Positions 23,444-49,707 of a stretch of 64,000 bases of DNA are shown here, one piece after another. The translations under genes and the position numbers were made by a program. Where the stretch lies: NCBI GenBank assembly GCA_033854515.1, contig JAWOJY010000003.1, positions 2,254-66,253 of the forward strand, written 5' to 3'. A model generated the notes under the pieces. It was not told the DNA's origin. It saw nothing but the letters and a program-made list of their open reading frames with translations, and searched no databases. Within the stretch, counting starts at the first letter, position 1, and every line of letters begins with the position of its first letter. This DNA is from Nitrospirota bacterium. GTDB taxonomy: Bacteria; Nitrospirota; UBA9217.

Positions 23444-23450
23444 AGATACT

Positions 23451-32830: not shown

Positions 32831-33642
32831 TAATGCGCTCCCCCGCCTTTTCTGAATATCAGTCCAACGCCGAAACCGGCCGACAGCGCGGCAAGTACGG
32901 ACAGCGCACCGTAGAGAACACCGTTGTTCCTGGCCATGCCGGCAAGGGATTTGACCATCCCGACCTGCTCAACATTCACTTTGGTTTCCGCCTGTTCCAC
33001 CACTTTCTTGTTCTTCACCGCATAAACCGTAACGAGATAATCGCCGGGTGTCGCCTGATACGGCCAGTCGGTCATGATGTAATATTCCTGCCTGCCGTTG
33101 TCGAGAGGCGTAGTGGATATCTTGTTCGAGGACATCGCATAGAGGCTCGACGCTTCTTTGAATTTCAGGAATTCATTGAACCATGCGGTCTTCTCTTCGT
33201 CGCCGGTGACCGGAGTAACTTCCACGTGATTTTTGAGCGACGAATAACCGATTGTGTATTTATCCATTTCTTCAGGGCTCAGGATATCTTCGAGCTTTCC
33301 CGTGCTGTAGACGCTGTAAAAGTTGGGCGCATGTTCGAACTTCAAATCGCCCACGTTCATCCACAGCAGCCCTCCCACCTTTCCTTTTTTCTTGAGCACC
33401 TGATGGCCTTCGGGCGAGGTTATCTTGATCACCAGATCCGTACCGGCGTCGGCCACGCCCTTTACGCTCACGGTGCTGCCGTGGTAAAAGAAGTCGATCT
33501 GGATGTGGTCATGATTCGCCTTGGCCGTCAACTCAGCAGCGGCGGTTCTATCAAATGTAAAATGTAAAACGAAAAATGCAAAAGCAAGGAATACCGTTAT
33601 TTCGAATTTTGGACTTTGAATTTTGAATTTCTTCATTATCAA
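32830..33642 (-). CDS. Secreted periplasmic protein with a C-terminal TM anchor, co-transcribed with the TSUP permease
   Basis: Signal peptide (VFLAFAFFVLHFTFDRTAAA), a soluble domain of about 220 aa and a C-terminal helix VLYGALSVLAALSAGFGVGLIF. Overlaps the upstream gene by 4 nt and abuts the downstream one. Confidence 0.5.
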   Translation of the reverse strand: MIMKKFKIQSPKFEITVFLAFAFFVLHFTFDRTAAAELTAKANHDHIQIDFFYHGSTVSVKGVADAGTDLVIKITSPEGHQVLKKKGKVGGLLWMNVGDLKFEHAPNFYSVYSTGKLEDILSPEEMDKYTIGYSSLKNHVEVTPVTGDEEKTAWFNEFLKFKEASSLYAMSSNKISTTPLDNGRQEYYIMTDWPYQATPGDYLVTVYAVKNKKVVEQAETKVNVEQVGMVKSLAGMARNNGVLYGALSVLAALSAGFGVGLIFRKGGGAH

Positions 33643-34610
33643 TGCCCTCCTGCCTGAGAGATGAGTAATGACGGACTTAAGGTGAGTTCAAAAATTATCT
33701 TGATCGTGACCACGAGAACGATGAGCGCAAGAAGTATCTTGAGCTGTTCGCCCTTCAGCTTCCTGCCGAAGACAGCGCCAACCTGCGCCCCGATTGTGGA
33801 GCCCAGGAGCAGGAGCACGGCAAGGATGAAATCCACGCTGTGGTTCGTATAGGCCTGGAGGAACGTGACCTCGATGCAGGTGAACAGTATCTGGAACAGG
33901 CTCGTGCCTACCACGACGTGCATCGGCATACGCAGGATATAGACCATCACCGGCACCATGAGGAACCCGCCGCCCACACCCATGATCGCAGCAAGGATGC
34001 CGACAAAGCCGCCGAGGATAACAGGCACGAGAGCAGAATGCGTGACGCCGGATTTTTCGAAATGGGTCTGGAGCGGCAAGGACTTCAGGAATTTGGCCAT
34101 ACCCGATTCTTTCTGCTGTTTGGACTCGGCAACGGACGGCTTTTTCTTCATGCTCATGATGCTCTCGACGAGCATATAGGAGCCGACGATGCCGAGCATG
34201 AGCACATAGGTCATTTTGATGACAAAGTCGGCGTTCCCCATGGCCTTGAGCACCTTGATGCCCTGGACGCCGACAAGGCCGCCGAGGAACCCGCCGAGAA
34301 GAAGGTAGAGCCCCATTTTGAAGTCAACGTTGCCCACCTTCCAGTGCGCATACGTGCCGGACGTCGATGCCGCAACGATCTGATTGGAGTCGGTGGCCGC
34401 GGCCACGGTCGACGGAATGCCGAACATGATCAGGAGCGGCGTCATCAGAAACCCTCCGCCTACGCCGAAAAGACCGGAAAGCAGCCCTACGGCGAGCCCG
34501 AGCCCCACGGGAATCAGGATGTTGATACTCGTTAACGCAACAGGCAAGTAAAGATACATTGCACCCACTCCTTTATCCGATATGATTATCTGTACAGGGT
34601 CCATGGCCAT
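33639..34610 (-). CDS. TauE/SafE (TSUP) family anion/sulfite-type permease
   Basis: Two internal repeats carrying the GxGGG signature (GLFGVGGGFLMTPLL and IMGVGGGFLMVPVMV); about 8 TM helices. Confidence 0.8.
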   Translation of the reverse strand: MAMDPVQIIISDKGVGAMYLYLPVALTSINILIPVGLGLAVGLLSGLFGVGGGFLMTPLLIMFGIPSTVAAATDSNQIVAASTSGTYAHWKVGNVDFKMGLYLLLGGFLGGLVGVQGIKVLKAMGNADFVIKMTYVLMLGIVGSYMLVESIMSMKKKPSVAESKQQKESGMAKFLKSLPLQTHFEKSGVTHSALVPVILGGFVGILAAIMGVGGGFLMVPVMVYILRMPMHVVVGTSLFQILFTCIEVTFLQAYTNHSVDFILAVLLLLGSTIGAQVGAVFGRKLKGEQLKILLALIVLVVTIKIIFELTLSPSLLISQAGGH

Positions 34611-34668
34611 GGAAAAACCCTATGCCGTACATTCATGCATGCATGGACAAAAAATCTTTGACCGTGTA

Positions 34669-35166
34669 TCAGGCCACGCAGCAGGCCTGTTTTGTCATGG
34701 TAACGATAGGCCGCGACGACGTCCTGACCAAGCGGTTGAGATCCTTGGACGATATATTGCCCTTCTCGGTCACAGCGGGGCTCAACAGAACCTTGTCGAT
34801 TCCCGAATTCTGCTTGAGAAAGGTCCTGATGCCCGAGACCGCGTCAAGTCCCGTGTTATGGACATGAACGTGAATGCCTTCCTTATGACACTTTTCTACC
34901 AGCTCGGCGAGTTTCTGATCGAGGCGCTTGCGTGCGTCGGGAGAATCCCCGGCCGCAACCTGTCGAGCCGTATCATGGTCATCTTCCTCTGCGAAACTCA
35001 CGGCGGTCATCAGATTTTCGATCTTGTCCATCAGGGTGTTTTTCTTGTGAACGAGCAGAAGCGCGATATCTTCATACATCGCCTTTGCAAGTTCAATGGC
35101 ATATGAAAGCCCATCTTCGAGATTCTCATCGCGGTATGTGACAAATAAAAGCTGTCTCTTTCCCAT
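34669..35166 (-). CDS. Divergent Usp-like protein carrying an inserted SFAEE-motif segment
   Basis: Strong RBS AAGGAGG. Usp-like beta-alpha pattern (LLFVTYRDENLEDGLSYAIELAKAMYEDIALLLV ... KVLLSPA). The insertion LMDKIENLMTAVSFAEEDDHDTARQ matches a motif in two genes of the second Usp operon. It is the first gene after the sigma-54 promoter. Confidence 0.5.
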   Translation of the reverse strand: MGKRQLLFVTYRDENLEDGLSYAIELAKAMYEDIALLLVHKKNTLMDKIENLMTAVSFAEEDDHDTARQVAAGDSPDARKRLDQKLAELVEKCHKEGIHVHVHNTGLDAVSGIRTFLKQNSGIDKVLLSPAVTEKGNISSKDLNRLVRTSSRPIVTMTKQACCVA

Positions 35167-35224
35167 TGGAATTGACCTCCTTGCATGTTCAAACTCCAGT
35201 ATGTTCGAACTTTGCCTTTACATA

Positions 35225-35241
35225 TTGCAATGAGAATGCCA
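35225..35241 (-). promoter_or_regulatory. Sigma-54 (RpoN) -24/-12 promoter: TGGCAT-TCTCA-TTGCAA
   Basis: On the minus strand the sequence reads TGGCATTCTCATTGCAA, with the conserved GG and GC spaced exactly as in the TGGCAC-N5-TTGCW consensus. It lies about 50 nt upstream of the 35166 start, in an AT-rich intergenic region next to a sigma-54 activator gene. Confidence 0.55.
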
Positions 35242-35638
35242 TTTTTTAAGTTATTGTTTTTAAAACATTTGATAACTTAATGCCAAATTATATTGTTTCA
35301 AATTTTAACTATTATGAACATCAGACAAATAATTTAGTATCAATTTCGAATTTCACGCGAAGCAGAAAGTCAGTTTCTACCCTTTATTTAGAGGGCAAAA
35401 CATCATTTTTTAGAGACAGCTAAGTAATAGCGAAATATACTATTTGGCATTTTCTTTCATGTTTCAAAACTGGACATGATTTGTATTTTTGAAATTTATT
35501 GAATAATCTGTTACTATAAGGTGCAATATACATAAAAAATATCTGTTTTTTGAAAAATTTTGCACCTCTTTACAGCAAAAAGTTAAGCGTGCATTCGCGT
35601 CTTTCGCGATTAAAATTGGTTTTAGACAAGGGGAAAAT

Positions 35639-36250
35639 ATGACTGAACCGAATAATCCCGGTGAAGAAAAAGCCTGGGAGATTCTGTCGACGCTGGATCC
35701 GGACAAGCTGTGCAAGGCCGCGTCCGCCTTCTATGACCGAGCGACGGAAAAATACGCTGTGACGTCGCTCGGAATGAGATTCGACGTTTCACCCAAGGAA
35801 AGGACGATTTCGAGCGCCTCACCCGGAAGCGAGGTGATCCTTCATAAACTCGGTTATTTCTTCAAGCTCTCAATCCTGTGGTATCTGGTAAGCGCAAAAG
35901 ACATTCGTTGCACGGAACGTCTCGTGAAGCTTCAGAACATCAAAGGCGGGGATATATTTACTAGGGGGTCGCACCTCCTGCCCCTTGACAGGCTGGAGCT
36001 GAAATACGGGACGAACAAGAGCGGGTTTATCGAGAAGGGGAAAACGCTTGCCGGAGAAATCATGAATTACGGCGACGCTTCGCTGAAGCTCTTCCCTTTT
36101 CCAAGGGTCCCGGTCGTTCTCACGCTCTGGATCGAGGATGAGGAGTTCCCGGCCCGCGTTGATCTGCTGTTCGATTCAACCTGCGATCTGCTGTTGCCGG
36201 TCGATATAATCTGGTCCACAGCCATGCTGACCGTGCTCGCCATGCTGTGA
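35639..36250 (+). CDS. DUF3786-like hypothetical protein
   Basis: 203 aa; RBS AAGGGGAAAA upstream; preceded by a 470-bp AT-rich region; the family assignment is from memory only. Confidence 0.45.
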   Translation: MTEPNNPGEEKAWEILSTLDPDKLCKAASAFYDRATEKYAVTSLGMRFDVSPKERTISSASPGSEVILHKLGYFFKLSILWYLVSAKDIRCTERLVKLQNIKGGDIFTRGSHLLPLDRLELKYGTNKSGFIEKGKTLAGEIMNYGDASLKLFPFPRVPVVLTLWIEDEEFPARVDLLFDSTCDLLLPVDIIWSTAMLTVLAML

Positions 36251-36268
36251 GCGATTGCAGCCTTCGGT

Positions 36269-37609
36269 CTAACTTTCTTCAGCCTCTTTCAGTATGCGCC
36301 ACAGGCTGGTTCTCGAAATGCCGAGCACTTCGGCCGTCTTGGATCTGTTGCCGCCGTACATATCGAGCACTTTTTCCGCGTATTCCTTGTTCAATTCATC
36401 GATGGTCTTGATCCTGTCCGGCTCGAGCGTATCGATCTGGAACATCTTGATGCTCTGGGGCAGGCTCGCGGGGGTAATGAGAGAATCCCGTTCGAGGATG
36501 ATCGCCCGCTCGATGATGTTCTCAAGCTCCCGCACGTTTCCCGGGAAGCTGTACGTCATGAAGATGTCCATTGCGTCTTTGGAGAACCCGCTTATCTTTT
36601 TGCGGGACTTTGGGAGGTGTTTTTCAAGGAAAAACCTGCACAGCGGAGAAATGTCCTCCCTGCGCTCCCGGAGCGGCGGGGTGAATATCTCCATGATGTT
36701 GAGCCGGTAGTAGAGGTCCTCCCTGAACCTCCCTTCCGAGATGAGCGCCCGCACGTTCTGGTTCGTCGCCGCAATAAACCGTACATCAACTTTGATGGGC
36801 CGTGTGCCGCCGACTCTGTAGAATTCGCCTTCCTCGATCACCTTGAGGAGCTTCGCCTGGAGGTTCGGAGACATCTCGGCGATCTCATCAAGGAACAGAG
36901 TGCCCGTGTCGGCGATCTCTACGAGACCCTGTTTGGTCCTGTGAGCTCCGGTGAACGCCCCTTTCTCGTGGCCGAACAGCTCGCTGGCGAGAAGTTCCTC
37001 GGTCAGCGTCGCGCAGTTTATGGAGAGGAATGGCATGTCTTGGCGCCTGCTCGTGAAATGAATGATCTTGGCCAGGAGACTCTTTCCCACGCCGGTCTCA
37101 CCCGTGAGAAGAACGTTGCAATCGGAGTCCTTGATCCCCTCGATGATGCTGAGGATGTTCTTCATGCTCTCGCTTTTCGCGATGATCGATGCCTTCTTAT
37201 CCATTCCGAGGTATGTTTTAAGGGCGATGTTCTCCTTTCTCAGGGTCTTCTGTTCCCGGATCTTGTTCACCTTCAGGATGAGTTCGTCCAGATCGTAGGG
37301 CTTCGTAATGTATTCGTATGCCCCTTTTTTCATTGCATCCACCGCCGACCCGATGCTCCCGAATCCGGTCACGATGATGACCTCCGTATCGAGCTGTTTT
37401 TCCTTGATTGTGTCGAGGAGTTCGATGCCGGTTAGACCCGGCATTTTTATATCGGCGATGAGCACGTCATAGGCGCGGGTTTCCATGTTCTCGAGCGCTT
37501 CCGTTCCGTTCGTTACGCCGGTCACGTCATACCCTTCCTTGGCAAGAGTATTCATGAGGTGCTTCAGGGTTATTTCTTCATCTTCAGCTACAAGTATCTT
37601 AAAAGCCAT
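36269..37609 (-). CDS. Sigma-54-dependent transcriptional activator, NtrC family (REC, AAA+ sigma-54 interaction domain, Fis-type HTH)
   Basis: REC domain (ILVAEDEE, DVLIADIKMPG); Walker A GETGVGKSLLA; GAFTGA motif (EKGAFTGA); the ESELFGHEKGAF region; C-terminal HTH (RSKTAEVLGISRTSLWRILK). Confidence 0.9.
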   Translation of the reverse strand: MAFKILVAEDEEITLKHLMNTLAKEGYDVTGVTNGTEALENMETRAYDVLIADIKMPGLTGIELLDTIKEKQLDTEVIIVTGFGSIGSAVDAMKKGAYEYITKPYDLDELILKVNKIREQKTLRKENIALKTYLGMDKKASIIAKSESMKNILSIIEGIKDSDCNVLLTGETGVGKSLLAKIIHFTSRRQDMPFLSINCATLTEELLASELFGHEKGAFTGAHRTKQGLVEIADTGTLFLDEIAEMSPNLQAKLLKVIEEGEFYRVGGTRPIKVDVRFIAATNQNVRALISEGRFREDLYYRLNIMEIFTPPLRERREDISPLCRFFLEKHLPKSRKKISGFSKDAMDIFMTYSFPGNVRELENIIERAIILERDSLITPASLPQSIKMFQIDTLEPDRIKTIDELNKEYAEKVLDMYGGNRSKTAEVLGISRTSLWRILKEAEES

Positions 37610-37710
37610 GGTTTTCCTTTCCTGGTTATGTTATATCCAGTGCGTTCATCCTCGAGTAAATTCCGTGTGTCTCCGGAAAGCAGACGGGGACCGGGGCGTG
37701 TATACGCAAG

Positions 37711-39300
37711 TCAATCGGAAAAAACAATAATAAACGTCGTTCCCCTGCCTTCTTCGCTTTCAACCAGTATTCCCGCATTGTGTTTTTGTATGATATTAAA
37801 CACGACGGCCAGTCCCAGACCGTTGCCTTTGTCCTTTGTGGTGAAAAAGGGCTCGAAAATCTTATCGAGAGAGTCTTTCGGGATTCCGCTGCCCGAATCG
37901 GACACCTTCACGGTCACTGATCCGTTCGACTTTCTGACGGATGTCCGGATGTCCCCTTCACCATGCATGGCTTCGACCGCGTTCGTAAACAGGTTGATGA
38001 AAACCTGCTCCAACTGCGCGGGATCGGCCTGTACGTAAACACGATGCGGATCGGCGTCGATAGAGAAACGGATGCCGTTCAGGACTTGAGGAGACACGGA
38101 GAGGCGTTTATAAGAGCTGCCGATCAACCCGATCAGTTCCACGTCCCGGAGCTGCGGCTTCTTGCCCCGCGCGAACTCAAGGAGATCTCCCACAATCTTT
38201 TTCACTCTGAGCGTTTCTCCTTCGATATCGTCCACGGCTTCTCTCGCTGCGGGCGGAAGGGCACCGCCGGCCTCTTTTGAAAGCACCTGAGCCGACAGAT
38301 AAATGTTATTGAGGGGGTTATTGAGTTCATGTGCCACCCCCGACGCAAGAGTGCCGATGGCGGCAAGCTTCTTACTCCGCATCAGCTCTTTGTTTTTCCG
38401 GTCGAGTTCTTCGTCTCTTCGTGCGAGTTGTCCCTGCAGGGTATTGAACTCGTCTATAAGCACCCCCACTTCATCGCGGACGTTGTCTTTTGACGGCGGA
38501 TCGTACAGATGCATGTACCATCCCGTGCCGGCCTTTTCCACTATCTTTATCAGGAGCATCAATCGTCGCACGACGTTGCCGCTGATAAAGAACAGCGTCC
38601 CTATGCCGACGATAAAGAACAGCGGGAAAAATATGATAATCGCCGTCTGCGAGACGCGGGTCACGGTCTTCGCATGTTCACGCGCTTCGATATCGAGGTC
38701 ATTGGCTATAACGACGATGTCCTCGCCGTTTTTTCTCAACGTGCCGACTTCCGCATCGAGTTTTCTGAGCCCCGTGACCAGATTGTGGTCCGGCGGCAGC
38801 ATGAACACCGTTTCGAGAATATCCGCCGCGTCCGACGGGCGATGCAAAAAATCCGATTCCATGAACAGGGAAAATTCGGCAGAGTTACGATATGAGGGTT
38901 TTATACGATCAAATGCAGTTGTCAGGCTCTCTCCAGACGCTTCTACTTCATCAAACCTCTGCTCGTACTTCTTCAACCGGTCCCGCAGGGCCAGTTCATC
39001 CTTCCAGTCGATGTGGGGGTTCGCTGCCAGGATATCCTGCATTTCCTTGGTACAGAGATGTACGGCCTTCGATTCTTCCGCGACCTGCTGGGGACTTTTG
39101 GCAAAGAAATAGTTGGTTTCATGCCGTCTCAGATCGAGGGCCTTCCTCATCACAAGGTCCGTTGTCTCCAGGTATCGTATCTCCCTCTTGATCTCCACAA
39201 AATTTATGTATTCGAATACCGTGAGGATGGCGATGATGGCGGCGCTGATGAGAAAACCGATGGTTATTTTCTTCTTAAGTGACACGGCTTTGGCAACCAC
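37711..39300 (-). CDS. Sensor histidine kinase (paralog 1 of a tandem pair)
   Basis: TM, sensor with RRHETNYFFA, TM, HAMP, H-box GVAHELNNPLNNI, HATPase boxes (NLFTNAVEA, DSGSGI, GNGLGLA); begins with GTG. Confidence 0.85.
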   Translation of the reverse strand: MVAKAVSLKKKITIGFLISAAIIAILTVFEYINFVEIKREIRYLETTDLVMRKALDLRRHETNYFFAKSPQQVAEESKAVHLCTKEMQDILAANPHIDWKDELALRDRLKKYEQRFDEVEASGESLTTAFDRIKPSYRNSAEFSLFMESDFLHRPSDAADILETVFMLPPDHNLVTGLRKLDAEVGTLRKNGEDIVVIANDLDIEAREHAKTVTRVSQTAIIIFFPLFFIVGIGTLFFISGNVVRRLMLLIKIVEKAGTGWYMHLYDPPSKDNVRDEVGVLIDEFNTLQGQLARRDEELDRKNKELMRSKKLAAIGTLASGVAHELNNPLNNIYLSAQVLSKEAGGALPPAAREAVDDIEGETLRVKKIVGDLLEFARGKKPQLRDVELIGLIGSSYKRLSVSPQVLNGIRFSIDADPHRVYVQADPAQLEQVFINLFTNAVEAMHGEGDIRTSVRKSNGSVTVKVSDSGSGIPKDSLDKIFEPFFTTKDKGNGLGLAVVFNIIQKHNAGILVESEEGRGTTFIIVFSD

Positions 39301-39448
39301 GGCATTACTTTACCATAATGGGTCCTCCTCATGCAACCCCAAAAGAAAAAGAACTTTTGAGCATGGTAAGAGCCGTGACCGTTGTAAAGAGGGCTTTTAT
39401 GGGCGGCCGGAGCCGGAAGAGATAAATGACCGCAAACCTCGGGTCGTT

Positions 39449-41086
39449 TCAGTTCTCCCCGGCGTCGTTAACGGACGTTCCGACGGCGCCGGAAACAACC
39501 CCTCCCGCCCCCGTCTGTTTCACCGGGAATATGATAATAAACGTTGTTCCCTTTTCCGGTTCGCTTTCAACCAGTATTTCAGCGTTATGCTTTTGCAGGA
39601 TATTGAACACGATTGCCAGCCCCAGCCCCGTGCCCCTGTCCTTCGTTGTAAAAAAAGGCTCGAAAATCTTGTCAAGGGAGTCCTTCGGGATGCCGCATCC
39701 TGAATCGGTTATTTTCATCGTTACTGATTCATCCGACTTTTTGATGGAGACCCGGAGACTGCCTTCATAGCGCATCGCTTCGACGGCATTCATAAAGAGA
39801 TTGATGAAAACCTGCTCCAACTGCGCGGGATCGGCCTGTACACACACGCGTTCGGGATAGGAGTCGACGGAAAAGCGTACCTTGTCCAGGGAGTGAGACA
39901 TTTTGAGATGCTTGAAGGAATGGTCGATCAGGCCTTGTAATTCCACGTCCTCCACCTGCGGTTTTCTGCCGCGCGCGAACTCGAGGAGGTCACCGACGAT
40001 CCTCTTCACCCGAAGCGTTTGGCCGACGATGTCGCCGAGGGCGTTTTTCACCGCAGGCTGAATATGTTCGTTCGCCTCTTTCAAAAGCACCTGGGCCGAC
40101 AGATAGATATTGTTGAGGGGGTTATTGAGTTCGTGCGCCACGCCCGACGCCAGCGTGCCGATTGCGGCCAGCTTCTTCGCTTGCATGAGTTCTCTGTTTT
40201 TCCGGTCGAGTTCTTCTTCTCTCCGGGCAAGCTGGTCCTCCATATCGTTAAATTTGTCGATCAGCAGTCCCACCTCGTCATGAGCGTTGCCTTCGGAAGA
40301 AGAAACGGAAATGTGCGGATAGTTTCCTTTGCCGGTCTTTTCGATTACCTTGATCAGGAGCATCAGTCTCTTGACGGCGCTGCCGCTGATGAAAAAAAGG
40401 GTCCCGATGCCGACGATGAAAAAAATGGGGAAGATCACAAGGATGGCCAGTTGGGAAATGCGGATAACCGTCTCCGTGTTTTCCCTTGCAACTTTGTCGA
40501 GTTCTTTGGAAATAATGAGGATATCTTCACCGTTTTTTCTGAGTGCGGCAATGTCGCCGTCGAGCCTCCTGAGCCCGAAGATTAGTGCGTGATTTGAGGG
40601 AAGCAGGAACCCCTTTTCGAGGACATCAGCCGCCTGAGACGGACGTTCGAGAAACGTCGACTCTATCATCGGGAAGAACTCGGCATGGCTCCGGTGCGCG
40701 GGTTTTATCCCTTCAAACGCCTTCGTCAGGCCGCGAACCGCGACTTCGATGGTGCTGAATCGTTGTTCATATTCGTTGATCCGGTCCCGCAAGGCGAGTT
40801 CATTCTTCCGGTCGATGTGCGGGTTTTTTGTCAGTATGTCCCTGAGCTGCCCCACGTAGTCATGTACCGCCTCTGATTCTTCCTTTGCCATCTGAGTACT
40901 GTAGAGGAAGTAATTCTTTTCGTGCCGCCGGAGTTGGAGGGACTTCCTCATAATCGTATCGGTCGTCTCAAGATACCGGGTTTCCTTTTTGATTTCTATG
41001 AAATTGACATATTCAAACGCCGTAAGCACGGCGATGATTGCGGCGCTTATCAAAAAACTGATTGCTATTTTTTTCTTGAGTGACAT
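39449..41086 (-). CDS. Sensor histidine kinase (paralog 2 of a tandem pair)
   Basis: Near-identical layout and many identical blocks relative to 37711..39300 (MSLKKKIAISFLISAAIIAVLTAFEYVNFIEIK..., GVAHELNNPLNNI, DSGCGI, GTGLGLA); start set at the ATG of MSLKKK. Confidence 0.85.
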   Translation of the reverse strand: MSLKKKIAISFLISAAIIAVLTAFEYVNFIEIKKETRYLETTDTIMRKSLQLRRHEKNYFLYSTQMAKEESEAVHDYVGQLRDILTKNPHIDRKNELALRDRINEYEQRFSTIEVAVRGLTKAFEGIKPAHRSHAEFFPMIESTFLERPSQAADVLEKGFLLPSNHALIFGLRRLDGDIAALRKNGEDILIISKELDKVARENTETVIRISQLAILVIFPIFFIVGIGTLFFISGSAVKRLMLLIKVIEKTGKGNYPHISVSSSEGNAHDEVGLLIDKFNDMEDQLARREEELDRKNRELMQAKKLAAIGTLASGVAHELNNPLNNIYLSAQVLLKEANEHIQPAVKNALGDIVGQTLRVKRIVGDLLEFARGRKPQVEDVELQGLIDHSFKHLKMSHSLDKVRFSVDSYPERVCVQADPAQLEQVFINLFMNAVEAMRYEGSLRVSIKKSDESVTMKITDSGCGIPKDSLDKIFEPFFTTKDRGTGLGLAIVFNILQKHNAEILVESEPEKGTTFIIIFPVKQTGAGGVVSGAVGTSVNDAGEN

Positions 41087-41213: not shown

Positions 41214-42068
41214 TTACGACCTGACAATGAGCACGGGGCACCCGGCGTGTCCGATGACCTTTTCGGCCACGCTTCCCATGAGGAGCCTTCTCAAGCCGGT
41301 CCTTCCGTGGGACCCCATGACGATGATGTCCGCTTTTTTCCGCTGTGCGAGGTCGATGATCGCCTGGTACGCTTCTGCCTCGGCTATGAACGTCTCCGCC
41401 TTGATTCCTGCTTCTTCCGCCTGCTTCCGGATCCCCTCGACAAAGCTTTTCGCCTTTTTGACAAGGTCCTCCATGGCCTGCGGGGCCTCGGCGTAAAATT
41501 CTGACGGGACATCTACCACGCAGATGATAATGAGCCCGCCGTTGTATGATTCGGCGAGACTTATAGCCTTCGCGGCTGCAGTCATGCTGAATCGGGACCC
41601 ATCGGTCGCGATCAGGATTTTGTTCCATCCCACCGCTGTCCGAAGCGGCATGACGAGCACATCACGCTCGCTGTGGCCGATGACCCGCGCCGTGACGCTG
41701 CCGACCAGCGCCCGCTCGAAACCGGTCCGGCCTTTTCTGCCCATGATGATAAGATCGGCGTTTTCCGCAACGGCAAGGTCGACGATCCGCTCATGGGGAG
41801 GGCCTTCCTCACAGACGGTCTTGATAAGCGCGCCGTCCGCCTGGGCCATCTTCTGTGCTTCGGCAAGCGCGGCCTCGCAGGGCCTTCTCAGGGACTCCAG
41901 GATGTTTTTCGTGCCCACGAATTCCAGGTCACCCTCGAAGGGAGGAGCAACTGAAGTGACCGTTATCCAGCTCTTTTCATTGAGCGCGAGCTTGAAGGAT
42001 TCCCTCAATGCGTTCATGCTTGACTCCGAGCCGTCAACGGCCACCAGCAGTTTCCTATATCTTCCCAT
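41214..42068 (-). CDS. Universal stress protein with tandem Usp domains
   Basis: Two Usp repeats (KLLVAVDGSESS...LIIMGRKGRTGFERALVGSVTARVI and ILIATDGSRFS...IIVMGSHGRTGLRRLLMGSVAEKVI). Confidence 0.85.
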   Translation of the reverse strand: MGRYRKLLVAVDGSESSMNALRESFKLALNEKSWITVTSVAPPFEGDLEFVGTKNILESLRRPCEAALAEAQKMAQADGALIKTVCEEGPPHERIVDLAVAENADLIIMGRKGRTGFERALVGSVTARVIGHSERDVLVMPLRTAVGWNKILIATDGSRFSMTAAAKAISLAESYNGGLIIICVVDVPSEFYAEAPQAMEDLVKKAKSFVEGIRKQAEEAGIKAETFIAEAEAYQAIIDLAQRKKADIIVMGSHGRTGLRRLLMGSVAEKVIGHAGCPVLIVRS

Positions 42069-43146
42069 GCTCCAGCGCTCCCTCGGAGAGCCTGAGTTTT
42101 TCTTCCCTGCGCCCTTGCATCATGGCACGCAGCACGATGATGGCACCCAGCAGTAATGCGGCGATCATTATACCAAAGCTCGTGGTCTTGAGCAACCCGG
42201 CCGTGCCGTCGCCGAGCTTCTGGATGAGGCCGAGCTGGGACAGGTACACCGGGATCATGAGCCCGCGGCTGAAGAGCACGATGACCATGATCAGGCCCAT
42301 GACGACCTTGATCATGTACGGCTTGACGTAGGTGGTGCCGATGGCGCCGAGCTGAATGCCGAAGAGCGAGCCCGCGAGAATGATCAGGGCGAGCCGGATA
42401 TCGACGAGCCCGCTCATGGCGTACTTGAACGAGCCGCCGAGACCCATGACGAATGCGATCACAAGCTCAGTGGCCGAGGCCATGAGGCTGGGCGCGCCCA
42501 TGACGTAGATCATCGAAGGGACGCCGATGAAGCCGCCGACGGCGATCGTAGCCGCCAGCATGCCCGTCGCAAAACCGAGAGGAACGGTAAAGAGCACCGA
42601 AATGCGGGCGTTCAGGCTCTTGAAGTAGACCATCGTGCCCGGAATGTTGATTGACTGGACCCAGCGCGCCAGCTTGCCGGCCTTCTCTTCTTCGAGCACG
42701 TTGCCCGACTTGTAAGTCTTATAGGCGTCACGCAGCACAAAGCCGCCCACCAGCGCGAGGATCACGACAAAGGCCACGCTCACGTACAGGTTCGAACCTG
42801 CATCGCCGAAGGCTTTCTTGATGTTTTCCTGGATGTGGGCGCCGTAGAGCACCCCTGCTTCCGCCGAGATGCCGAGCACGATACCGAGTTTCACGTCGAC
42901 CTGGCCGTACTTGGCCCGTTTGATCGCCCCGACGAGCGCCTTGGGAAACTTGTGGCACATGTTGCTCGCGACCGCCACGAGCCCGGGGACCCCCAGGCTC
43001 ATCATGCCCGGCGTAAGCACGAAAGCCCCGCCCGATCCGATAAATCCGCTTACGAGACCCCCGACAAAGCCCACACCGAAAAGGTAGAGGACAGTGATGG
43101 TGTCGAGGTTGATGAAATTAGCCGCTGTTCCGATGACGTCGTGCAT
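42055..43146 (-). CDS. TauE/SafE (TSUP) family permease
   Basis: GxGGG-type signatures (GFIGSGGAFVLTPGMM and IAVGGFIGVPSMIYVMG); 8-10 TM helices. Confidence 0.8.
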   Translation of the reverse strand: MHDVIGTAANFINLDTITVLYLFGVGFVGGLVSGFIGSGGAFVLTPGMMSLGVPGLVAVASNMCHKFPKALVGAIKRAKYGQVDVKLGIVLGISAEAGVLYGAHIQENIKKAFGDAGSNLYVSVAFVVILALVGGFVLRDAYKTYKSGNVLEEEKAGKLARWVQSINIPGTMVYFKSLNARISVLFTVPLGFATGMLAATIAVGGFIGVPSMIYVMGAPSLMASATELVIAFVMGLGGSFKYAMSGLVDIRLALIILAGSLFGIQLGAIGTTYVKPYMIKVVMGLIMVIVLFSRGLMIPVYLSQLGLIQKLGDGTAGLLKTTSFGIMIAALLLGAIIVLRAMMQGRREEKLRLSEGALEHGKI

Positions 43147-43147
43147 G

Positions 43148-43402
43148 TTATTTTACCTCCTTCTTTTTTTTGGCCGCCTCGATACCCATGACCGTCCAGA
43201 AATGACCGGTGAATTGGCCATGTACAAACGAAAATACGAACGCCAGTGTTATGGGCAAAAAAGCATAGAGCCCGCCCCTGCCGAACGTGCCGTTCACCAT
43301 GTCCTGGTTGGACAGGAGCGCGGCGTACAGCGCCATGGAGACGACTCCCATGAACAGCATCTTGCCGACCGGTTTCTTTTTCGTGCTGCTGTGTGCCATC
43401 AC
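43148..43402 (-). CDS. Small 2-TM membrane protein encoded immediately upstream of the TSUP permease
   Basis: 84 aa; two hydrophobic helices; 1-nt gap to the permease gene. Confidence 0.5.
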   Translation of the reverse strand: MMAHSSTKKKPVGKMLFMGVVSMALYAALLSNQDMVNGTFGRGGLYAFLPITLAFVFSFVHGQFTGHFWTVMGIEAAKKKKEVK

Positions 43403-43456: not shown

Positions 43457-43948
43457 TCACGCGCGCATGCTGTCCGCAACCACCACGAGCGGGCACCTGA
43501 GGTCCTGCCACAGGTCGGAAAGCCTCCTGTCCCCGCTGTTGCAATCAACGTCGAGCCCTTCCGACGACTCGATGACGACGAAGAGTACGGAGCTCTTGGC
43601 ATTCGTGTAATCGATGATTTCCTGTTTCATGCAGCCGGTCCTGTGCGTCACCGCATACTCAATCCCCGCGGTCCTGAGTTCTGACAGGAAATCGCGGAGC
43701 AGCGGGTCCGAATCAGCGCCGGACGCGAGCTCCCGCGAAAGATACAGGATGTCAAGCCCCGCCCTGACCCGCATGCAGGTGTTCACGGCGTACTTCAACG
43801 TCCCGGCGTCCACCTGCCCGCGCCTCACGGCGAGCAGTACCCTTCGTTCCTGTTTCAGCAACTCTTCGGCCTGGCCGAACGCTCCTTCCTCGGCGAAGGA
43901 ACCCGCAGTCAGCGCCTTTTCAATTTTGTCGATCATTTTGTTGATCTT
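43457..43948 (-). CDS. Divergent Usp-like protein with an N-terminal SFAEEG motif
   Basis: Start at the ATG with GAGGT upstream. The N-terminus MVHKINKMIDKIEKALTAGSFAEEGAFGQAEELL carries the motif; a Usp-like C-terminal part follows (VLFVVIESSEGLD...LVVVAD). Confidence 0.5.
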   Translation of the reverse strand, partial: KINKMIDKIEKALTAGSFAEEGAFGQAEELLKQERRVLLAVRRGQVDAGTLKYAVNTCMRVRAGLDILYLSRELASGADSDPLLRDFLSELRTAGIEYAVTHRTGCMKQEIIDYTNAKSSVLFVVIESSEGLDVDCNSGDRRLSDLWQDLRCPLVVVADSMRA

Positions 43949-43998
43949 ATGTACCATTTTCCCTGCTACCTCGGGAGCGGCACAGGAAGCCTCCGCTC

Positions 43999-44175
43999 TT
44001 AGTCGGCCCTCAACACTTTCCTTTCCGACGGCCGCGTACGCTTGTGAGCGGACGGACGATCGGTCTTTCTCGACTGTATTTCTCTTATCAGCTGCCGCGC
44101 CGTCTCGAACTCGCCTTCTTCGGCGAATGCAACAGCAGCCATTTCCGTTTCGCGCCTTTTGATAAATTCTTTCAT
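43999..44175 (-). CDS. Small protein (58 aa) carrying the same AFAEEGEF motif
   Basis: Strong RBS AAGGGAAAGGAGGT 7 nt before the ATG; sequence MKEFIKRRETEMAAVAFAEEGEFETARQLIREIQ...; it is the first gene after the sigma-54-like promoter. Confidence 0.4.
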   Translation of the reverse strand: MKEFIKRRETEMAAVAFAEEGEFETARQLIREIQSRKTDRPSAHKRTRPSERKVLRAD

Positions 44176-44211
44176 GTTCGTGTACCTCCTTTCCCTTTTT
44201 ACTATTTCTGT

Positions 44212-44228
44212 TATCAAGTACCGTGCCA
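44212..44228 (-). promoter_or_regulatory. Sigma-54-like promoter candidate: TGGCAC-GGTAC-TTGATAA
   Basis: Perfect -24 element and correct spacing, but the -12 element reads TTGA rather than TTGC; about 25 nt upstream of the RBS of the small gene. Confidence 0.35.
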
Positions 44229-44568
44229 CAATGAAACAAACATATAAGTCATTGTATTCGCAGAATTAAAATTTTAAAATGAAGACCAACCTCAAGAAAA
44301 TATTGTTTCAAAAAGCAATAGTTCAATTTTAAATGCAACCATATTATTGAAAAAAAGAATAATTCTAATCGATACAAAAACGAACCTATATTGCAAAATG
44401 CAACAATTTTGTTTTTCTGCTCTTAAAACTAGACGCTTGCCGGAAAAAAGCGGCCCTGTTGTGGACGGCATTTTTTTGTGGTATAGTGAATTTTGTTGGA
44501 GAAAAAAGCTTTCTCTCGTCGAGTGCACATCACGGCTTCAATCGGGAAACTGCGAGGATGGGCGGACC

Positions 44569-46593
44569 GTGAAATTTTTCAAAAAATCGGACGACAGCCA
44601 GCAGGAAACAATCATCGAAGAGCTGCGCCAGAAGATCGCCGCGGCCGCTATGCCGCCGTCCGTCGAGAAGATTGCGGAGCAGGAACTTGAAATTCTGACA
44701 AAGATAAACTCTTCGTCTGCCGAATACACGATCGGGCTCACCTATATCGACTATCTCGTCTGCCTTCCGTGGAACAGAAAGACCGAGGACAATCTCGACA
44801 TCGCCCGCGCTGAAAGAATACTGAACGAGGACCATTACGGTCTGAGGAGGACCAAGGAGCGCGTTCTGGAGCACCTTGCGGTCAAAGTGCTGAATAGGGA
44901 CAGGAAGCCGCAGATTCTGGTCGTCGACGACGAAGAGATCGCGAGGAAAAACCTGGCCCATATCCTGACAAAGGAAACCTATGCCGTAACGACCGCTTCG
45001 AACGGCAAAGAAGCGCTCAGGGCGCTCGATGCCTTCGAGTTCGACGTCGTGGTCACCGATCTCAGAATGGGCTCCATCGACGGGATGGAACTTCTCGAAA
45101 AGATCACCGTGAAATATCCGGCCGCGAAAGTGATCATCGTAACCGGGTATGCCACGATCCCGTCGGCTATAGAGGCCACGAAAAAAGGGGCCTTCTCGTA
45201 TATCGCAAAACCGTTCCAGCTCGAAGAGGTCCGCGCAGCGGTCAAACAGGCGCTGGAAAAGAAAGCTCGCGTAAAGAGCACCAAGGGTTCCGTCCTCTGC
45301 TTTGTGGGCCCTCCGGGCACGGGGAAGACGTCGCTCGGCAGGTCTATTGCCGGAGCCCTGGGACGAAAATTCACAAGGATATCGCTGGGCGGTATGAAAG
45401 ACGAGGCCGAGATACGCGGCCACCGGCGGACTTACGTCGGCGCGAAACCCGGCAGGATCATCGAGGAAATCCGCAGAGTGGAATCCGCCAACCCGGTCAT
45501 CATGCTCGACGAGCTGGATAAGATCGGGCACGACTTCAAGGGAGACCCCGCCTCGGCGCTCCTCGAAGTGCTGGATCCGGAACAGAACCACAGTTTTGTC
45601 GACCACTATCTCGACGTGCCCTTCGACCTGTCGAGCGTCATGTTCATCCTCACGGCGAACATTATGGAACACATCCCCTCCCCGCTCAGGGACCGCATGG
45701 AACTCATCGAATTTTCCGGATATACCCATGAAGAGAAGGCCCGCATCGCCGAACTGTTCGTCATCCCGCGCCAGATACGGGAAAAGGGGCTGACTGAGCG
45801 CCCGCCCGTCTTCACGCGCGAGGCAGTGGACAGGATCATTCGCGAGTACACCCGCGAGGCTGGCATCCGGAACCTCGAAAGAAAGATTGCGTCGGTCTGC
45901 AGAAAAGTAGCCAAAGAACTGGTCGACACAAAAGGAAATCTAGGCGCCGTGACCATAACGCCGGATGCCGTAGAGCGCTACCTCGGCCGGAGAAAGTATT
46001 ACTTCGAAGTGGTCGAAGAAAAGGACCGAATCGGCGTCACGACCGGCCTGGTCTGGACCGAGGCGGGCGGGGACATCATTTTCGTCGAAGCAGCCATGAT
46101 GAGGGGAAAAAAAGAGCTCCTGTTGACAGGTTCGCTCGGGGACGTCATGAAGGAATCGGCGCAGGCCGCCCTGAGCTACGTGAGGAGCAACGCGGCTTCG
46201 CTCGGCATTCCTGAGGATTTTTTCGAGCGCTACGACATCCACATCCACGTGCCGTCAGGAGCGATCCAGAAGGACGGGCCCTCGGCCGGGCTCGCCATGG
46301 TCATCGCCCTTATATCCCTCCTTACAAAACGTCCGGCGAAACGGGACGCGGCCATGAGCGGTGAAATAACCCTCACCGGCAGGGTCCTCCCCGTGGGCGG
46401 GGTCAAGGAGAAAATCCTGGCCGCCCGGCGCGCCAACGTCAAGACCGTCATTCTTCCCGCCAAGAACCGGGTGGACGTTGAAGATTTAACCGACGAGGCT
46501 TCGAACGGCATCACCATCCGTCTGGTCGATACTGTAAACGAAGTGGCCGACCTGGTTGTCACGAGGGAAAAGGAATTACCGGGACAATCATAA
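44569..46593 (+). CDS. Lon-family ATP-dependent protease with a response-regulator receiver domain inserted before the AAA+ module and no canonical N-terminal LON substrate-binding domain
   Basis: A Lon pre-AAA helical segment ([21 protein letters not shown], which aligns with E. coli Lon DTDHYGLERVKDRILEYLAV) leads into a complete REC domain (ILVVDDEE...[15 protein letters not shown]...VIIVTGY...YIAKPF). Walker A (GPPGTGKTS), the Lon sensor region and the catalytic protease Ser (DGPSAG) and Lys (KEKILAA) follow. The low-GC 5' part of the long ORF looks non-coding, so the start was set at the in-frame GTG 44569 behind GAGGA; the ORF could start as early as 44347. Confidence 0.85.
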
Positions 46594-46751
46594 GTCAAAA
46601 GGCATGACGACTTACATTCCGTCATTCCGTCTGCATCCGCATATTGCAGGAGAGCAAGATGGGCTGACCCGCCTGCCCTGAACCATCCCTTCCTGATTTT
46701 TCCTTCCTGTTACGTTACGCAGATCGCGTCCTCTGTTGCTTTTTGCAATAG

Positions 46752-48344
46752 ATGATGGTAAAATCCACCATGTTTTCTTTCCCCCAGAGTATCCGCCAGA
46801 AGATCACGCTCGGCTACTACGCCATCATCGTCCTTATCGTCGGGCTGTCGCTGTTCATGTTCATCGAACTGAGGCTTGTTGAAAAGCGGATCATGTTCGG
46901 CGAGACCATATCGGATTTTTTTGATACCACCCTGGAGATCAGAAGGTTCGAGAAGAACTATTTCCTCTACGCCAAGGGACCCGATTACGAGGAGAACATA
47001 ACCTATGTAACCAGGGCGCAGGAAATCCTCGAGGAGAGCATTCCCGGTTTCAGCACCATCGCCAGCGCGGAGCAGATACAGACGCTGAGGGACAACCTCG
47101 GGTCGTACAAGGCCCTCATGGAACAGTATTCGGGAGCGAAGTCGAAGGGGCTTCACCTCGTTGTTCTGGAAGAGAGCATCAGGAAAAAGGGAAAAGACAT
47201 CATTACCGCTGCCGAGGCGATTTCAAAAAGCGAGCGGAAAAATCTCCAGGCCCTCCTCGCGCGGCACCAGGGCATCCTCGTCCTTTCGATCGCCGCTCTC
47301 TCCGTTCTGGCGATCATCATCGGCCAGGTGCTCTCGCGGATAGTGGTGCGGCCCCTGAAATCCCTGGAAGAGAGCATGGGCGTGATCGCCGAGGGAAAAT
47401 TCGAACGGGTATCGATCAACTCAAAAGATCGGGAGATCGTCTCGCTTACGAAGGCCTTCAATAAAATGCTGCGGGAACTCGAGCTCCACGAGCGGCACCT
47501 GATCCAGTCGGAGAAGCTCGCATCCCTCGGCACGCTCCTGTCTGGCGTAGCCCACGAGCTCAACAATCCCCTTTCCAACATTTCGTCGTCCAACCAGATC
47601 CTCACGGAAGAATTAAAAGAGTGCCTGGGATCGTGGGTCGCGGGCCCGGGAACAGGGAAAAGAGAACAGGAAAGCAAGGACAAACGTCCCTCCGCATCCC
47701 CGCCCGTGAACCCGCATTTCGTCATGGAACTCGTCGCGCAGATAAACGACCAGACCGACCGCGCCCGGAACATCGTCCGCTCCCTCCTCGATTTTTCGCG
47801 GGACAGGGAGTTCAAGAAGGAGACACTGTCGCTGAGAAAGCTTTTCGACGAAACCATCCAGTTCATCAGGGGCGACATTCCGACGAACATCACCGTTACC
47901 CTCGACGTGCCCGACGATATCTCCGTGTTCGTCGACAAGCAGCGGATCCAGCAGGCTTTCCTGAATCTGATAAAGAACGCCGTAGACGCTACGGCCCCGA
48001 AGGAAGGTAGGATATCGATCATCGCGCACCGGCAGCTTGCCATTGAAGACACCGAAGACGACAGGATCGGGATCTACAATTACCTGAAGTACCGCGGCGA
48101 ATGCCCTTTTGAGGAGGACACCGTAGACATCGAAATCCAGGACACCGGTTCGGGCATACCGATCGAGATAATCCCGAAGATCTTCGATCCCTTCTTCACC
48201 ACAAAGGAGGTGGGCAAGGGATCGGGGCTCGGTCTCTTTATCGTCCATGAGATTGTAAAGGAGCACGACGGCTGCATCGCGGTGGACAGCGAACCGGGCA
48301 AAGGAACATCATTTCTCATACGATTGCCGATGAAGGAGTCATAA
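46752..48344 (+). CDS. Sensor histidine kinase (TM, EKNYFLY-type sensor, TM, HAMP, HisKA, HATPase_c)
   Basis: RRFEKNYFLY sensor motif; H-box GVAHELNNPLSNI; N-box NLIKNAVDA; G-boxes DTGSGI and GSGLGLF. Its stop abuts the downstream sigma-54 activator (1-nt gap). Confidence 0.85.
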   Translation: MMVKSTMFSFPQSIRQKITLGYYAIIVLIVGLSLFMFIELRLVEKRIMFGETISDFFDTTLEIRRFEKNYFLYAKGPDYEENITYVTRAQEILEESIPGFSTIASAEQIQTLRDNLGSYKALMEQYSGAKSKGLHLVVLEESIRKKGKDIITAAEAISKSERKNLQALLARHQGILVLSIAALSVLAIIIGQVLSRIVVRPLKSLEESMGVIAEGKFERVSINSKDREIVSLTKAFNKMLRELELHERHLIQSEKLASLGTLLSGVAHELNNPLSNISSSNQILTEELKECLGSWVAGPGTGKREQESKDKRPSASPPVNPHFVMELVAQINDQTDRARNIVRSLLDFSRDREFKKETLSLRKLFDETIQFIRGDIPTNITVTLDVPDDISVFVDKQRIQQAFLNLIKNAVDATAPKEGRISIIAHRQLAIEDTEDDRIGIYNYLKYRGECPFEEDTVDIEIQDTGSGIPIEIIPKIFDPFFTTKEVGKGSGLGLFIVHEIVKEHDGCIAVDSEPGKGTSFLIRLPMKES

Positions 48345-48345
48345 C

Positions 48346-49707
48346 GTGGAAAACCAGGCAAAGATACTGATCGTCGACGATGAGAGGGTCGCCCTCAAGA
48401 ACCTCGAGCACGTCATGAAAAAAGAGGGCTATGACGTGACCGCGACACAGAGCGGGGCGAACGCCGTCAAGCTCCTCGAAGAGCAGCAGTTCGACATTGT
48501 GCTTACCGACCTGCGCATGGAAAAGGTCGACGGCATGCAGATTCTGAAGCGGTGCCATGAGCTGTATCCCGACACGGAGGTGATCATGATAACCGGCTAC
48601 GCCACTCTCGAATCCGCGGTCAACACCATGAAGCACGGCGCGTTCCATTACATCGCGAAACCCTTCAAGCTCGACGAGGTGAGAAAGATAGTCAAGGACG
48701 CCGCGGAAAAGATCAGGCTGAAGAAGGAGAACCGGCAACTCAGGGAGCAGCTCGAAACCTACCAGGGAAAGGTCAAGATCATCACCCAGGATCCCACGAT
48801 GCAGCGACTGCTCGACACCGCGCGCCAGATCGCGCCGACCGACTGCAACGTCATCATCACCGGCGAGAGCGGCACGGGCAAGGAGCTCTTCGCCCGCTAC
48901 ATCCATTTCAACAGCAAGCGCTCGGGGGGCCCTTTCTTCGCCGTGAACTGCGGCGCCTTTACCGAGGAACTGCTGTCGAACGAACTCTTCGGACACGAGA
49001 AGGGCGCGTTCACCGGCGCGAACGCCATGAAGAAAGGCCTCATCGAGATGGCGTCCGGCGGGACCCTGTTCCTCGACGAGGTGACCGAGATGCCCGCGTC
49101 GGCGCAGGTAAAGCTCCTTCGGGTCATTCAGGAGAAGGAAGTCATGCGCGTCGGCGGGACCGAGGCCCTGAAAGTGGACGTCCGCTTCATTGCAGCGACG
49201 AACCGCGACATCCACGACACGATGAAGAGCGGCAAGTTCCGGCAGGACCTGTACTTCAGGCTGAACGTCGTCTCCCTGAACATCCCTCCCCTGTCCGAGC
49301 GCAAGGACGATATCCCGCTTCTCACGTACTACTTCCTGAAGAAGTACTCCGTGCTCATGAAAAAAGAGATCACGGAGGTATCGCACGAAGTGCTCAACCT
49401 TCTGATGAACTATGATTTCCCCGGCAACGTCCGGGAACTCGAGAACATTATCGAACGGGGAGTGGCCCTCGCGAGCGGCGCGAGGATCGAGATCGCCCAC
49501 CTGCCGGAAGACCTGCGGGAGCTGAGCATCCGCACGTTCAGGAAGAAGGACGGAAAGATCCCGTCGCTCGAAGACCAGGAAATGGCCTATATCCAGTGGG
49601 TCCTGCAGGAGGTCGCCGGGAACAAGACCGTTGCGGCCCAGTTTCTCGGGATCGACCGCGTATCGCTGTGGAGGAAGCTCAAGAAGTACGGATTGGAGGA
49701 GGAGTAG
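48346..49707 (+). CDS. Sigma-54-dependent transcriptional activator, NtrC family
   Basis: GTG start; REC domain (ILIVDDE, DIVLTDLRMEKVDG); Walker A GESGTGKELFA; GAFTGA motif (EKGAFTGA); C-terminal HTH (KTVAAQFLGIDRVSLWRKLKK). Confidence 0.9.
   Translation: MENQAKILIVDDERVALKNLEHVMKKEGYDVTATQSGANAVKLLEEQQFDIVLTDLRMEKVDGMQILKRCHELYPDTEVIMITGYATLESAVNTMKHGAFHYIAKPFKLDEVRKIVKDAAEKIRLKKENRQLREQLETYQGKVKIITQDPTMQRLLDTARQIAPTDCNVIITGESGTGKELFARYIHFNSKRSGGPFFAVNCGAFTEELLSNELFGHEKGAFTGANAMKKGLIEMASGGTLFLDEVTEMPASAQVKLLRVIQEKEVMRVGGTEALKVDVRFIAATNRDIHDTMKSGKFRQDLYFRLNVVSLNIPPLSERKDDIPLLTYYFLKKYSVLMKKEITEVSHEVLNLLMNYDFPGNVRELENIIERGVALASGARIEIAHLPEDLRELSIRTFRKKDGKIPSLEDQEMAYIQWVLQEVAGNKTVAAQFLGIDRVSLWRKLKKYGLEEE

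Follow-up and report, generated by a model that had tools for sequence, protein, structure and literature searches.

A receiver-containing Lon protease encoded with a histidine kinase and a sigma-54 activator in a Nitrospirota bacterium

A 64 kb stretch of contig JAWOJY010000003.1 from a Nitrospirota bacterium (called here the window, whose positions serve as coordinates throughout) carries three consecutive plus-strand genes at 44569–49707 for a Lon protease with a response-regulator receiver domain (REC-Lon), a membrane histidine kinase (HK1) and an NtrC-type sigma-54 activator. This arrangement raises the question of whether one kinase serves two receiver partners, one acting on transcription and the other on proteolysis, as a preliminary description of the locus had proposed. 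Comparative evidence supports this proposal and indicates that HK1 probably controls both the sigma-54 activator and REC-Lon: the two receivers share 52% sequence identity, and the genes stay linked in 20 to 24 of 31 well-flanked related loci. The three genes are as follows.

44569..46593, plus strand: REC-Lon, 674 residues (Pfam; alignment to PDB 3m6a; TIGR00763)
46752..48344, plus strand: HK1, with a transmembrane–sensor–transmembrane region followed by HAMP, HisKA and HATPase_c
48346..49707, plus strand: NtrC-type sigma-54 activator (Pfam; GAFTGA loop), whose orthologues in related loci are 54–83% identical

The longest open reading frame (ORF) for the protease spans 44347..46593 (plus strand) and matches Response_reg (E 3e-30), AAA, Lon_lid and Lon_C (E 1e-83). 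Homologues are 664–669 residues long, and their ATG (MKFF...) corresponds to an in-frame GTG at 44569 in the window. Because the homologues align from residue 1, the start was assigned to this GTG, giving a gene of 44569..46593. The spacing given in the preliminary description is confirmed: the kinase gene follows REC-Lon after 158 bp (46594..46751), and a single nucleotide separates the HK1 stop codon, which ends at 48344, from the activator start at 48346. A ribosome-binding site, GAAGGAG, lies within the 3′ end of the HK1 gene as a Shine–Dalgarno sequence 7 nt ahead of the GTG start of the activator. The activator combines a receiver, Sigma54_activat and HTH_8 (Pfam) with a GAFTGA loop read from its translation, and thus has the features of an NtrC-family bacterial enhancer-binding protein.

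Anatomy of the receiver-containing protease

Alignment of REC-Lon with LonA of Bacillus subtilis (PDB 3m6a) falls into two pieces, in which query residues 16–111 match chain residues 10–105 and query residues 235–670 match chain residues 103–536. The receiver is therefore inserted cleanly, after the last helical bundle of LonA and ahead of its first AAA+ strand, and no residues have been lost where the two meet. The protein is divided as follows.

Residues 1–111: N-terminal helical bundle of LonA (3m6a alignment)
Residues 112–234, encoded at 44902–45270, plus strand: inserted receiver domain (3m6a alignment, Pfam)
Residues 235–455: AAA+ module
Residues 463–664: S16 protease domain

The AAA+ module, the lid, the S16 domain and the helical bundle that precedes the ATPase are roughly 50–58% identical between REC-Lon and canonical LonA (Escherichia coli, B. 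subtilis, MEROPS S16), and REC-Lon scores 740 against the TIGR00763 model 'endopeptidase La', above its cutoff of 608. In contrast, canonical LonA has an N-terminal globular region that REC-Lon lacks, whereas REC-Lon carries a receiver of 123 residues exactly at the ATPase junction. The N-terminal LON substrate-binding domain (PF02190) was not found in REC-Lon by Pfam, the LonA alignment begins only at the last helical bundle, and the N-terminal part of LonA made up of a globular portion and a long helix, roughly 250 residues, is absent.

The inserted receiver is of the NtrC type, with NtrC1 as its best PDB match. Across 117 residues it aligns without gaps to the receiver of the partner activator (52% identity), and it is 44% and 39% identical to two other receivers encoded in the window. 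The receiver is tethered by linkers of around 7 and 10 residues; by predicted secondary structure alone, the linker of around 10 residues between receiver helix 5 and the ATPase lacks a long coiled coil. NtrC1, DctD and NtrC likewise place an NtrC-type receiver directly ahead of an AAA+ module that forms a ring, although their output is transcription and that of REC-Lon is proteolysis. The logic common to all of them is likely to be that phosphorylation governs the assembly or the activity of the ring. Like REC-Lon, RssB of E. coli and CpdR of Caulobacter couple two-component phosphorylation to regulated proteolysis, but these receivers are separate adaptors of ClpXP, whereas the receiver of REC-Lon is covalently fused within the protease. 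If REC-Lon indeed works as a protease with a built-in two-component receiver, it would tie signal sensing directly to degradation without a separate adaptor.

The residues expected to carry out both activities are strictly conserved. Residues D120, D121, D164, T192 and K214 of the receiver, the Walker A and B motifs and pore Tyr289 of the ATPase, and Ser572 and Lys615 of the protease are invariant in all 27 aligned homologues. Among the REC-Lon ORFs of related loci, 78–79 of 81 retain the phospho-acceptor set, and the catalytic residues are also widely kept. This invariance argues that the phospho-acceptor and protease functions are both under selection.

Long Lon proteins that topped a search of a representative protein library were set aside as irrelevant to REC-Lon, since their scores are inflated by tandem AAA+ repeats and they carry no receiver. 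These proteins (P0121, P0124–P0127, P0129 and P0130) are 890–1,380 residues long and consist of two to three tandem AAA+/lid modules followed by a single protease domain.

A described three-gene system and its conserved neighbourhood

The system is one that has already been described, and the window copy is an ordinary new instance rather than a new kind of system. Judged from its architecture, its synteny and a shared binding site, the cluster appears to be the orthologue of DVU3303–DVU3305 of Desulfovibrio vulgaris Hildenborough, a published “three-component system” (Rajeev 2011, PMC3333781) made up of a response regulator containing a Lon protease (DVU3303), a kinase (DVU3304) and a sigma-54 activator (DVU3305). 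The annotation of DVU3303 combines 'ATP-dependent protease La, truncation' with a response-regulator domain. Binding by DVU3305 was described both at its own operon and at the DVU3302–3298 operon, which diverges from it and encodes membrane, hypothetical and some UspA-domain proteins (PMC3333781). The site consensus for the DVU3305 family, GTTGCA-N3-TGCAAC, derives from Table S9 of the same study, which covers DVU3305 and its orthologues, and orthologues with a conserved binding site were noted there in Thermodesulfovibrio, Thioalkalivibrio and Dechloromonas (PMC3333781). A sigma-54 promoter is listed for DVU3302–3298 and none for DVU3303–3305 (Kazakov 2015, PMC4641369). In fitness assays, DVU3303–3305 show pairwise cofitness above 0.9, and the anion transporter DVU3299 is named as a target (Trotter 2023, PMC10102598). 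A model in which one kinase serves two receivers has already been proposed for these genes (PMC3333781, PMC10102598). When we searched the literature for biochemical work on a receiver–Lon fusion, nothing came up beyond these three D. vulgaris papers.

The likeness extends from the trio to its surroundings. Both loci encode a Lon protease with a receiver and without the N-terminal Lon domain, next to a kinase and an NtrC-type activator; both set this operon, which lacks a sigma-54 promoter, against a divergent operon for hypothetical, membrane, Usp and anion-transporter proteins with a sigma-54-type promoter (predicted in the window); and both have the motif GTTGCA-N3-TGCAAC at the same intergenic place. 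The differences are a GAFSGA loop in DVU3305 in place of the GAFTGA of the window activator, a second kinase gene that follows the Usp gene in the window unlike in D. vulgaris, and the host lineage, as the relatives of the window are Nitrospirota and Thermodesulfovibrionales metagenome-assembled genomes. Thus Nitrospirota and Thermodesulfovibrionales relatives also possess, in highly conserved form, the DVU3303–3305 module together with its DNA motif and the sigma-54 operon that it targets.

To assess conservation of the neighbourhood, we took 80 related loci (Nitrospirota, Thermodesulfovibrionales, Desulfobacterales and others; numbered L below) and compared the window proteins with them by tblastn. 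Across these loci, REC-Lon is 57–79% identical to the window protein. The well-flanked set comprises the 31 loci that have 7 kb or more of sequence on each side; here an orthologous NtrC-type activator lies within 10 kb in 24, a full-length kinase of the HK1 type is present in 21, and both are found in 20. The association of REC-Lon, kinase and activator is far beyond chance. The linkage therefore survived a comparison that had been chosen beforehand as the test that could break it.

Linkage is maintained across relatives while gene order is shuffled around a recurring set of a Usp protein, an anion transporter, REC-Lon, a kinase and a sigma-54 activator. The divergent genes of the window are the following.

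43999..44175, minus strand: smallA, 58 residues, with an AFAEEGEFETA motif; first gene of the sigma-54 operon, with a strong Shine–Dalgarno sequence, conserved in relatives
43457..43957, minus strand: smallB, 166 residues, with an N-terminal SFAEEGAF, conserved in relatives
43148..43402, minus strand: 84-residue protein with two predicted transmembrane helices, conserved in relatives
42055..43146, minus strand: TauE/SafE (TSUP) anion permease (PF01925, E 1.5e-35), 64–88% identical in relatives
41214..42068, minus strand: tandem Usp protein with two Usp domains (PF00582 in two stretches, E 1.6e-65)
39449..41086, minus strand: HK2, a second histidine kinase with the EKNYFLY motif of HK1, located after the Usp gene and in the same orientation

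Three gene orders recur. In the first, which is that of the window, the Lon–kinase–activator genes diverge from those for smallA, smallB, the membrane protein, TSUP and Usp, and in some cases a second kinase comes next (for example, L001, L006, L008 and L024). In the second, the kinase and activator genes are divergent, and REC-Lon heads smallB, TSUP and Usp on its own strand (for example, L011, L019, L032 and L062). In the third, found in Desulfobacterales, the divergent sigma-54 operon encodes a small motif protein, Usp-like proteins, a CitMHS-type anion transporter, the kinase and the activator; here the CitMHS-type transporter stands in place of the permease, and Usp, kinase and activator are retained. 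The gene of 58 residues lies directly beside REC-Lon in all three orders.

Spacing within the trio also varies. The gap between the Lon and kinase genes is 7–73 bp in close relatives, which favours co-transcription, and in several other relatives it is 490–530 bp and holds a small gene and true binding sites.

Regulatory DNA of the divergent region

The region between REC-Lon and the divergent operon had been described as AT-rich and 330 bp long. The AT-richness stands, as its GC content is 0.36 compared with 0.53 for the window, but the length does not. A 260-residue minus-strand ORF that ends at 44239 was rejected as a gene, since it covers both smallA (ATG at 44175) and smallB (ATG at 43957), which are conserved. 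Because the real first minus-strand gene starts at the ATG at 44175, the divergent region is 393 bp long and has the putative sigma-54 promoter inside it. The candidate elements of the region, and one from the gap between the Lon and kinase genes, are listed here.

44213..44228, minus strand: sigma-54 −24/−12 promoter-like element TGGCACGGTACTTGAT, one mismatch, around 37 nt ahead of the smallA ATG
44305..44319, no strand assigned: candidate activator site 1 GTTTCAAAAAGCAAT, weaker, with three mismatches, 85 bp from site 2
44390..44404, no strand assigned: candidate activator site 2 ATTGCAAAATGCAAC, one mismatch to GTTGCA-N3-TGCAAC, conserved in the footprint alignment
44459..44487, plus strand: sigma-70-type promoter candidate for the Lon operon, read from sequence as TTGtgg, 14 nt and TGgTATAGT, with 17 nt between hexamers
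46735..46749, no strand assigned: motif-like site GTTGCTTTTTGCAAT from the motif scan, two mismatches, 3 nt ahead of the HK1 ATG

The activator motif was scanned with a spacer of 3 nt; the printed 16-mers carry an extra base, and a 4-nt spacer gave no site. Within the 64 kb, a threshold of one mismatch leaves ATTGCAAAATGCAAC as the sole hit, compared with 0.15 expected, and Table S9 of PMC3333781 lists the very same sequence for Thermodesulfovibrio yellowstonii. The same pattern holds for related loci. Of 65 loci, 43 carry a motif with at most one mismatch in the 450 bp ahead of REC-Lon, usually as a pair roughly 87 bp apart, and across these 65 loci the motif density is 2.26 per kb upstream of REC-Lon versus 0.035 per kb elsewhere, an enrichment of around 65-fold. 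A footprint alignment of the intergenic region of the window and five close relatives keeps the smallA start, the −24/−12 element and both activator sites, with a block GTTTCA-N3-TGCAAY at site 1 in all six sequences.

The divergent Usp/TSUP operon with a sigma-54-like promoter, as first described, is borne out by TGGCACGGTACTTGAT and by the strand bias of sigma-54 candidates in related loci: of 70 loci, 42 have candidates on the divergent strand and 5 have them pointing towards Lon. Close relatives share the imperfect TTGAT or TTGTA −12 element of the window. No match to a sigma-54 promoter directed towards the Lon operon was found on the plus strand of the intergenic region of the window. 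The sigma-54 transcription start predicted near 44202 puts the two activator sites near −110 and −195, distances that are normal for enhancers.

For the Lon operon itself, the extended −10 element TGgTATAGT (44479–44487) lies within TGTGGTATAGT (44477–44487), and the sequence TGNTATAGT occurs twice in the window compared with 0.48 expected. The element had been placed about 60 bp before Lon; its presence is upheld, as the block TTTTGTGnTAnAnT that contains it is kept in four of the six aligned sequences, but its distance is not, since it ends 81 nt before the start. The leader ahead of REC-Lon is thus around 80 nt in the window, as it also is in L005. In contrast, a conserved extended −10 block, TTTTGTGTTAAATTAA, ends 3–5 nt before the REC-Lon ATG in L001 (about 8125..8160) and L008 (about 9965..10004), which implies a leaderless mRNA in these two loci.

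A scan of the 158-bp gap between REC-Lon and HK1 revealed no promoter-like or terminator-like site. The HK1 ATG lacks a Shine–Dalgarno sequence, and the motif-like site GTTGCTTTTTGCAAT just ahead of it could be a relic of a longer regulatory gap between the Lon and kinase genes, such as that seen in L010, L013 and L016, or an autoregulatory site.

Far from this locus, the window holds a perfect sigma-54 consensus, TGGCACTCATTTTGCT, at 1523..1538 (plus strand), which is its sole match with zero mismatches.

Roles of the kinase, the receivers and the FAEAGE-motif proteins

The explanation that we consider likely is a stress system of the DVU3303–3305 type, in which HK1 acts on the activator and on a REC-Lon that is switched by phosphorylation. 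HK1 would sense a cue outside the cytoplasmic membrane and phosphorylate the two receivers. The phosphorylated activator would then bind the two GTTGCA-N3-TGCAAC sites in the 393-bp region and activate the sigma-54 promoter at 44228..44213, from which two FAEAGE-motif proteins (smallA and smallB), the small membrane protein, the TauE/TSUP permease, the tandem Usp protein and probably the second kinase would be expressed. Binding by the activator has been seen in vitro for the D. vulgaris orthologue, and in the window it is suggested by the identity of the site and its conservation. The Lon, kinase and activator genes would be expressed from the sigma-70-type extended −10 promoter without sigma-54, as in D. 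vulgaris. The most likely effect of phosphorylating Asp164 is to switch the assembly of the ring or access to substrate or pore, such that proteolysis of specific targets would start together with transcription. This switch is proposed by analogy with NtrC1 and DctD, because the receiver is tethered by short linkers exactly where receivers control AAA+ rings in activators of this type.

Several observations count against this explanation. In seven of the 31 well-flanked loci, the 10 kb around REC-Lon lack a partner activator. An AlphaFold2 model of REC-Lon built with 27 homologues was poor (mean pLDDT 57, pTM 0.30), such that the receiver could not be placed. Receivers of the same locus barely covary, as identity within a locus is 55.3% and across loci 54.6% among 27 loci (p about 0.04), a negligible difference; covariation was set aside as support, its signal being essentially nil. 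A separate kinase–activator transcript is possible, because the 158-bp gap holds a motif-like site. Part of the high cofitness in D. vulgaris might stem from polarity, with insertions in the leading gene of the operon affecting those behind it. Finally, under chlorate, D. vulgaris signalling mutants gain fitness and the target transporter is needed, a result that does not fit simple activation (PMC10102598).

As an alternative, the Lon receiver might act mainly as a phosphate sink or competitor that takes up phosphoryl groups from HK1 and thereby tunes phosphorylation of the activator, with the protease acting as a constitutive housekeeping enzyme that phosphorylation does not switch; the misfit between the directions of the D. 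vulgaris signalling-gene and transporter phenotypes is in favour of such a role. Branched pathways with sink receivers are established, as exemplified by CheY1 and CheY2 in Sinorhizobium, and two receivers that are 52% identical could compete for one kinase. Yet a sink needs neither an ATPase nor a protease, and the Walker A and B motifs, the pore Tyr, Ser572 and Lys615 are invariant alongside the phospho-acceptor pocket. Moreover, the globular N-terminal domain that housekeeping LonA uses to recognize substrates is missing, and the Lon mutants of D. vulgaris behave like the kinase and activator mutants rather than in the opposite manner, so we regard a sink as improbable. The receiver could instead be a pseudo-receiver that works independently of phosphorylation and replaces the lost N-terminal domain in oligomerization or partner binding, given that it is inserted where the N-terminal domain joins the ATPase ring. 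Phosphorylation-independent receivers are well known, but they usually lose their phospho-acceptor residues, whereas the two Asp residues, Asp164, Thr192 and Lys214 show the near-universal conservation described above and the REC-Lon gene is linked to that of a kinase. We therefore consider a pseudo-receiver highly improbable.

A different objection concerns the operon rather than the receiver. If a kinase–activator promoter resided in the 158-bp gap, the trio would not form one operon, and REC-Lon would be transcribed independently, possibly as an orphan served by another kinase such as HK2. The width of the gap, the motif-like site 3 nt before an HK1 ATG with no Shine–Dalgarno sequence, the gaps of 490–530 bp with a small gene and true sites in several relatives, the loci in which REC-Lon heads the transporter/Usp operon and the presence of three kinases with the same sensor motif in the window are all consistent with such an arrangement. 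Set against them are the result of the gap scan, the short gaps of close relatives and the fact that the genes stay linked across rearrangements. This last point favours a shared function however the genes are transcribed, and we judge separate units with an independently served REC-Lon to be a poor prospect. HK1 acting on both the activator and a phosphorylation-switched REC-Lon therefore remains the explanation that we prefer, and the questions most worth pursuing are biochemical, namely whether phosphorylation gates the protease and which substrates it degrades. The comparative data useful for such work are the insertion point, the invariant residues, the shuffled but maintained neighbourhood and the FAEAGE proteins as candidate substrates.

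The conserved FAEAGE-motif family beside REC-Lon is the best and most interesting side lead from this analysis. A short motif, [AST]FAE[AE]GE[FH][ED]TA, marks a family of proteins of around 58 residues as well as larger proteins of 150–190 residues, one of which, in L037, matches Pfam Usp. Motif ORFs are present in L037 (9470..9646, 8935..9441 and 8333..8890, minus strand) and in about 50 other related loci. In 50 of 77 loci, REC-Lon has such an ORF no more than 900 bp away, with a density of 0.63 per kb compared with 0.02 per kb elsewhere. Searches of Pfam and NCBIfam gave no family match for smallA, smallB or the 84-residue membrane protein, and literature searches gave no description of the FAEAGE motif. 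The motif proteins are candidates for substrates, adaptors or regulators. A more specific proposal is that REC-Lon is gated by phosphorylation and has the neighbouring FAEAGE proteins (smallA and the motif proteins that follow) as its specific targets or partners, such that the kinase would induce them through the activator and set their lifetime through the protease. We hold this proposal to be speculative and rather unlikely, and we know of no system in which a fused receiver-protease has been shown to act as a timer on its own regulon.

HK1 consists of a transmembrane helix, an outer helical sensor of around 135 residues with the conserved motif RRFEKNYFLY, a second transmembrane helix, HAMP, HisKA and HATPase_c. 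Its sensor region has no family match in Pfam or NCBIfam, and a PDB sequence search gave only a colinear, non-significant match to the histidine kinase 9m08 (E 0.97). Our guess is that the cue for HK1 is related to anions, because the regulon includes transporters and D. vulgaris has a chlorate phenotype. The EKNYFLY motif that had been noted is encoded three times in the window compared with 0.15 expected by chance. HK2 keeps its position in L001, L008, L009, L010 and L013. The third EKNYFLY histidine kinase is encoded at 23788..25221 (minus strand) and is followed by a stand-alone receiver protein of 132 residues (about 23450..23849, minus strand).

A paralogous module without Lon adjoins the divergent operon (31973..41086, minus strand). 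Past the Usp gene, it encodes HK2, a third kinase (at 37711..39300) and a second activator of the NtrC type (36269..37609). These genes are followed by AT-rich DNA in which a sigma-54-like promoter, TGGCATTCTCATTGCA, is located at 35241..35226. Behind it lie genes for a 165-residue protein that bears a variant of the motif, SFAEEDDHDTA, for a TauE permease and an Alph_Pro_TM protein, and for a tandem Usp protein. The REC-Lon system and this second regulon may thus form a transcriptional cascade, with the former acting on the latter.

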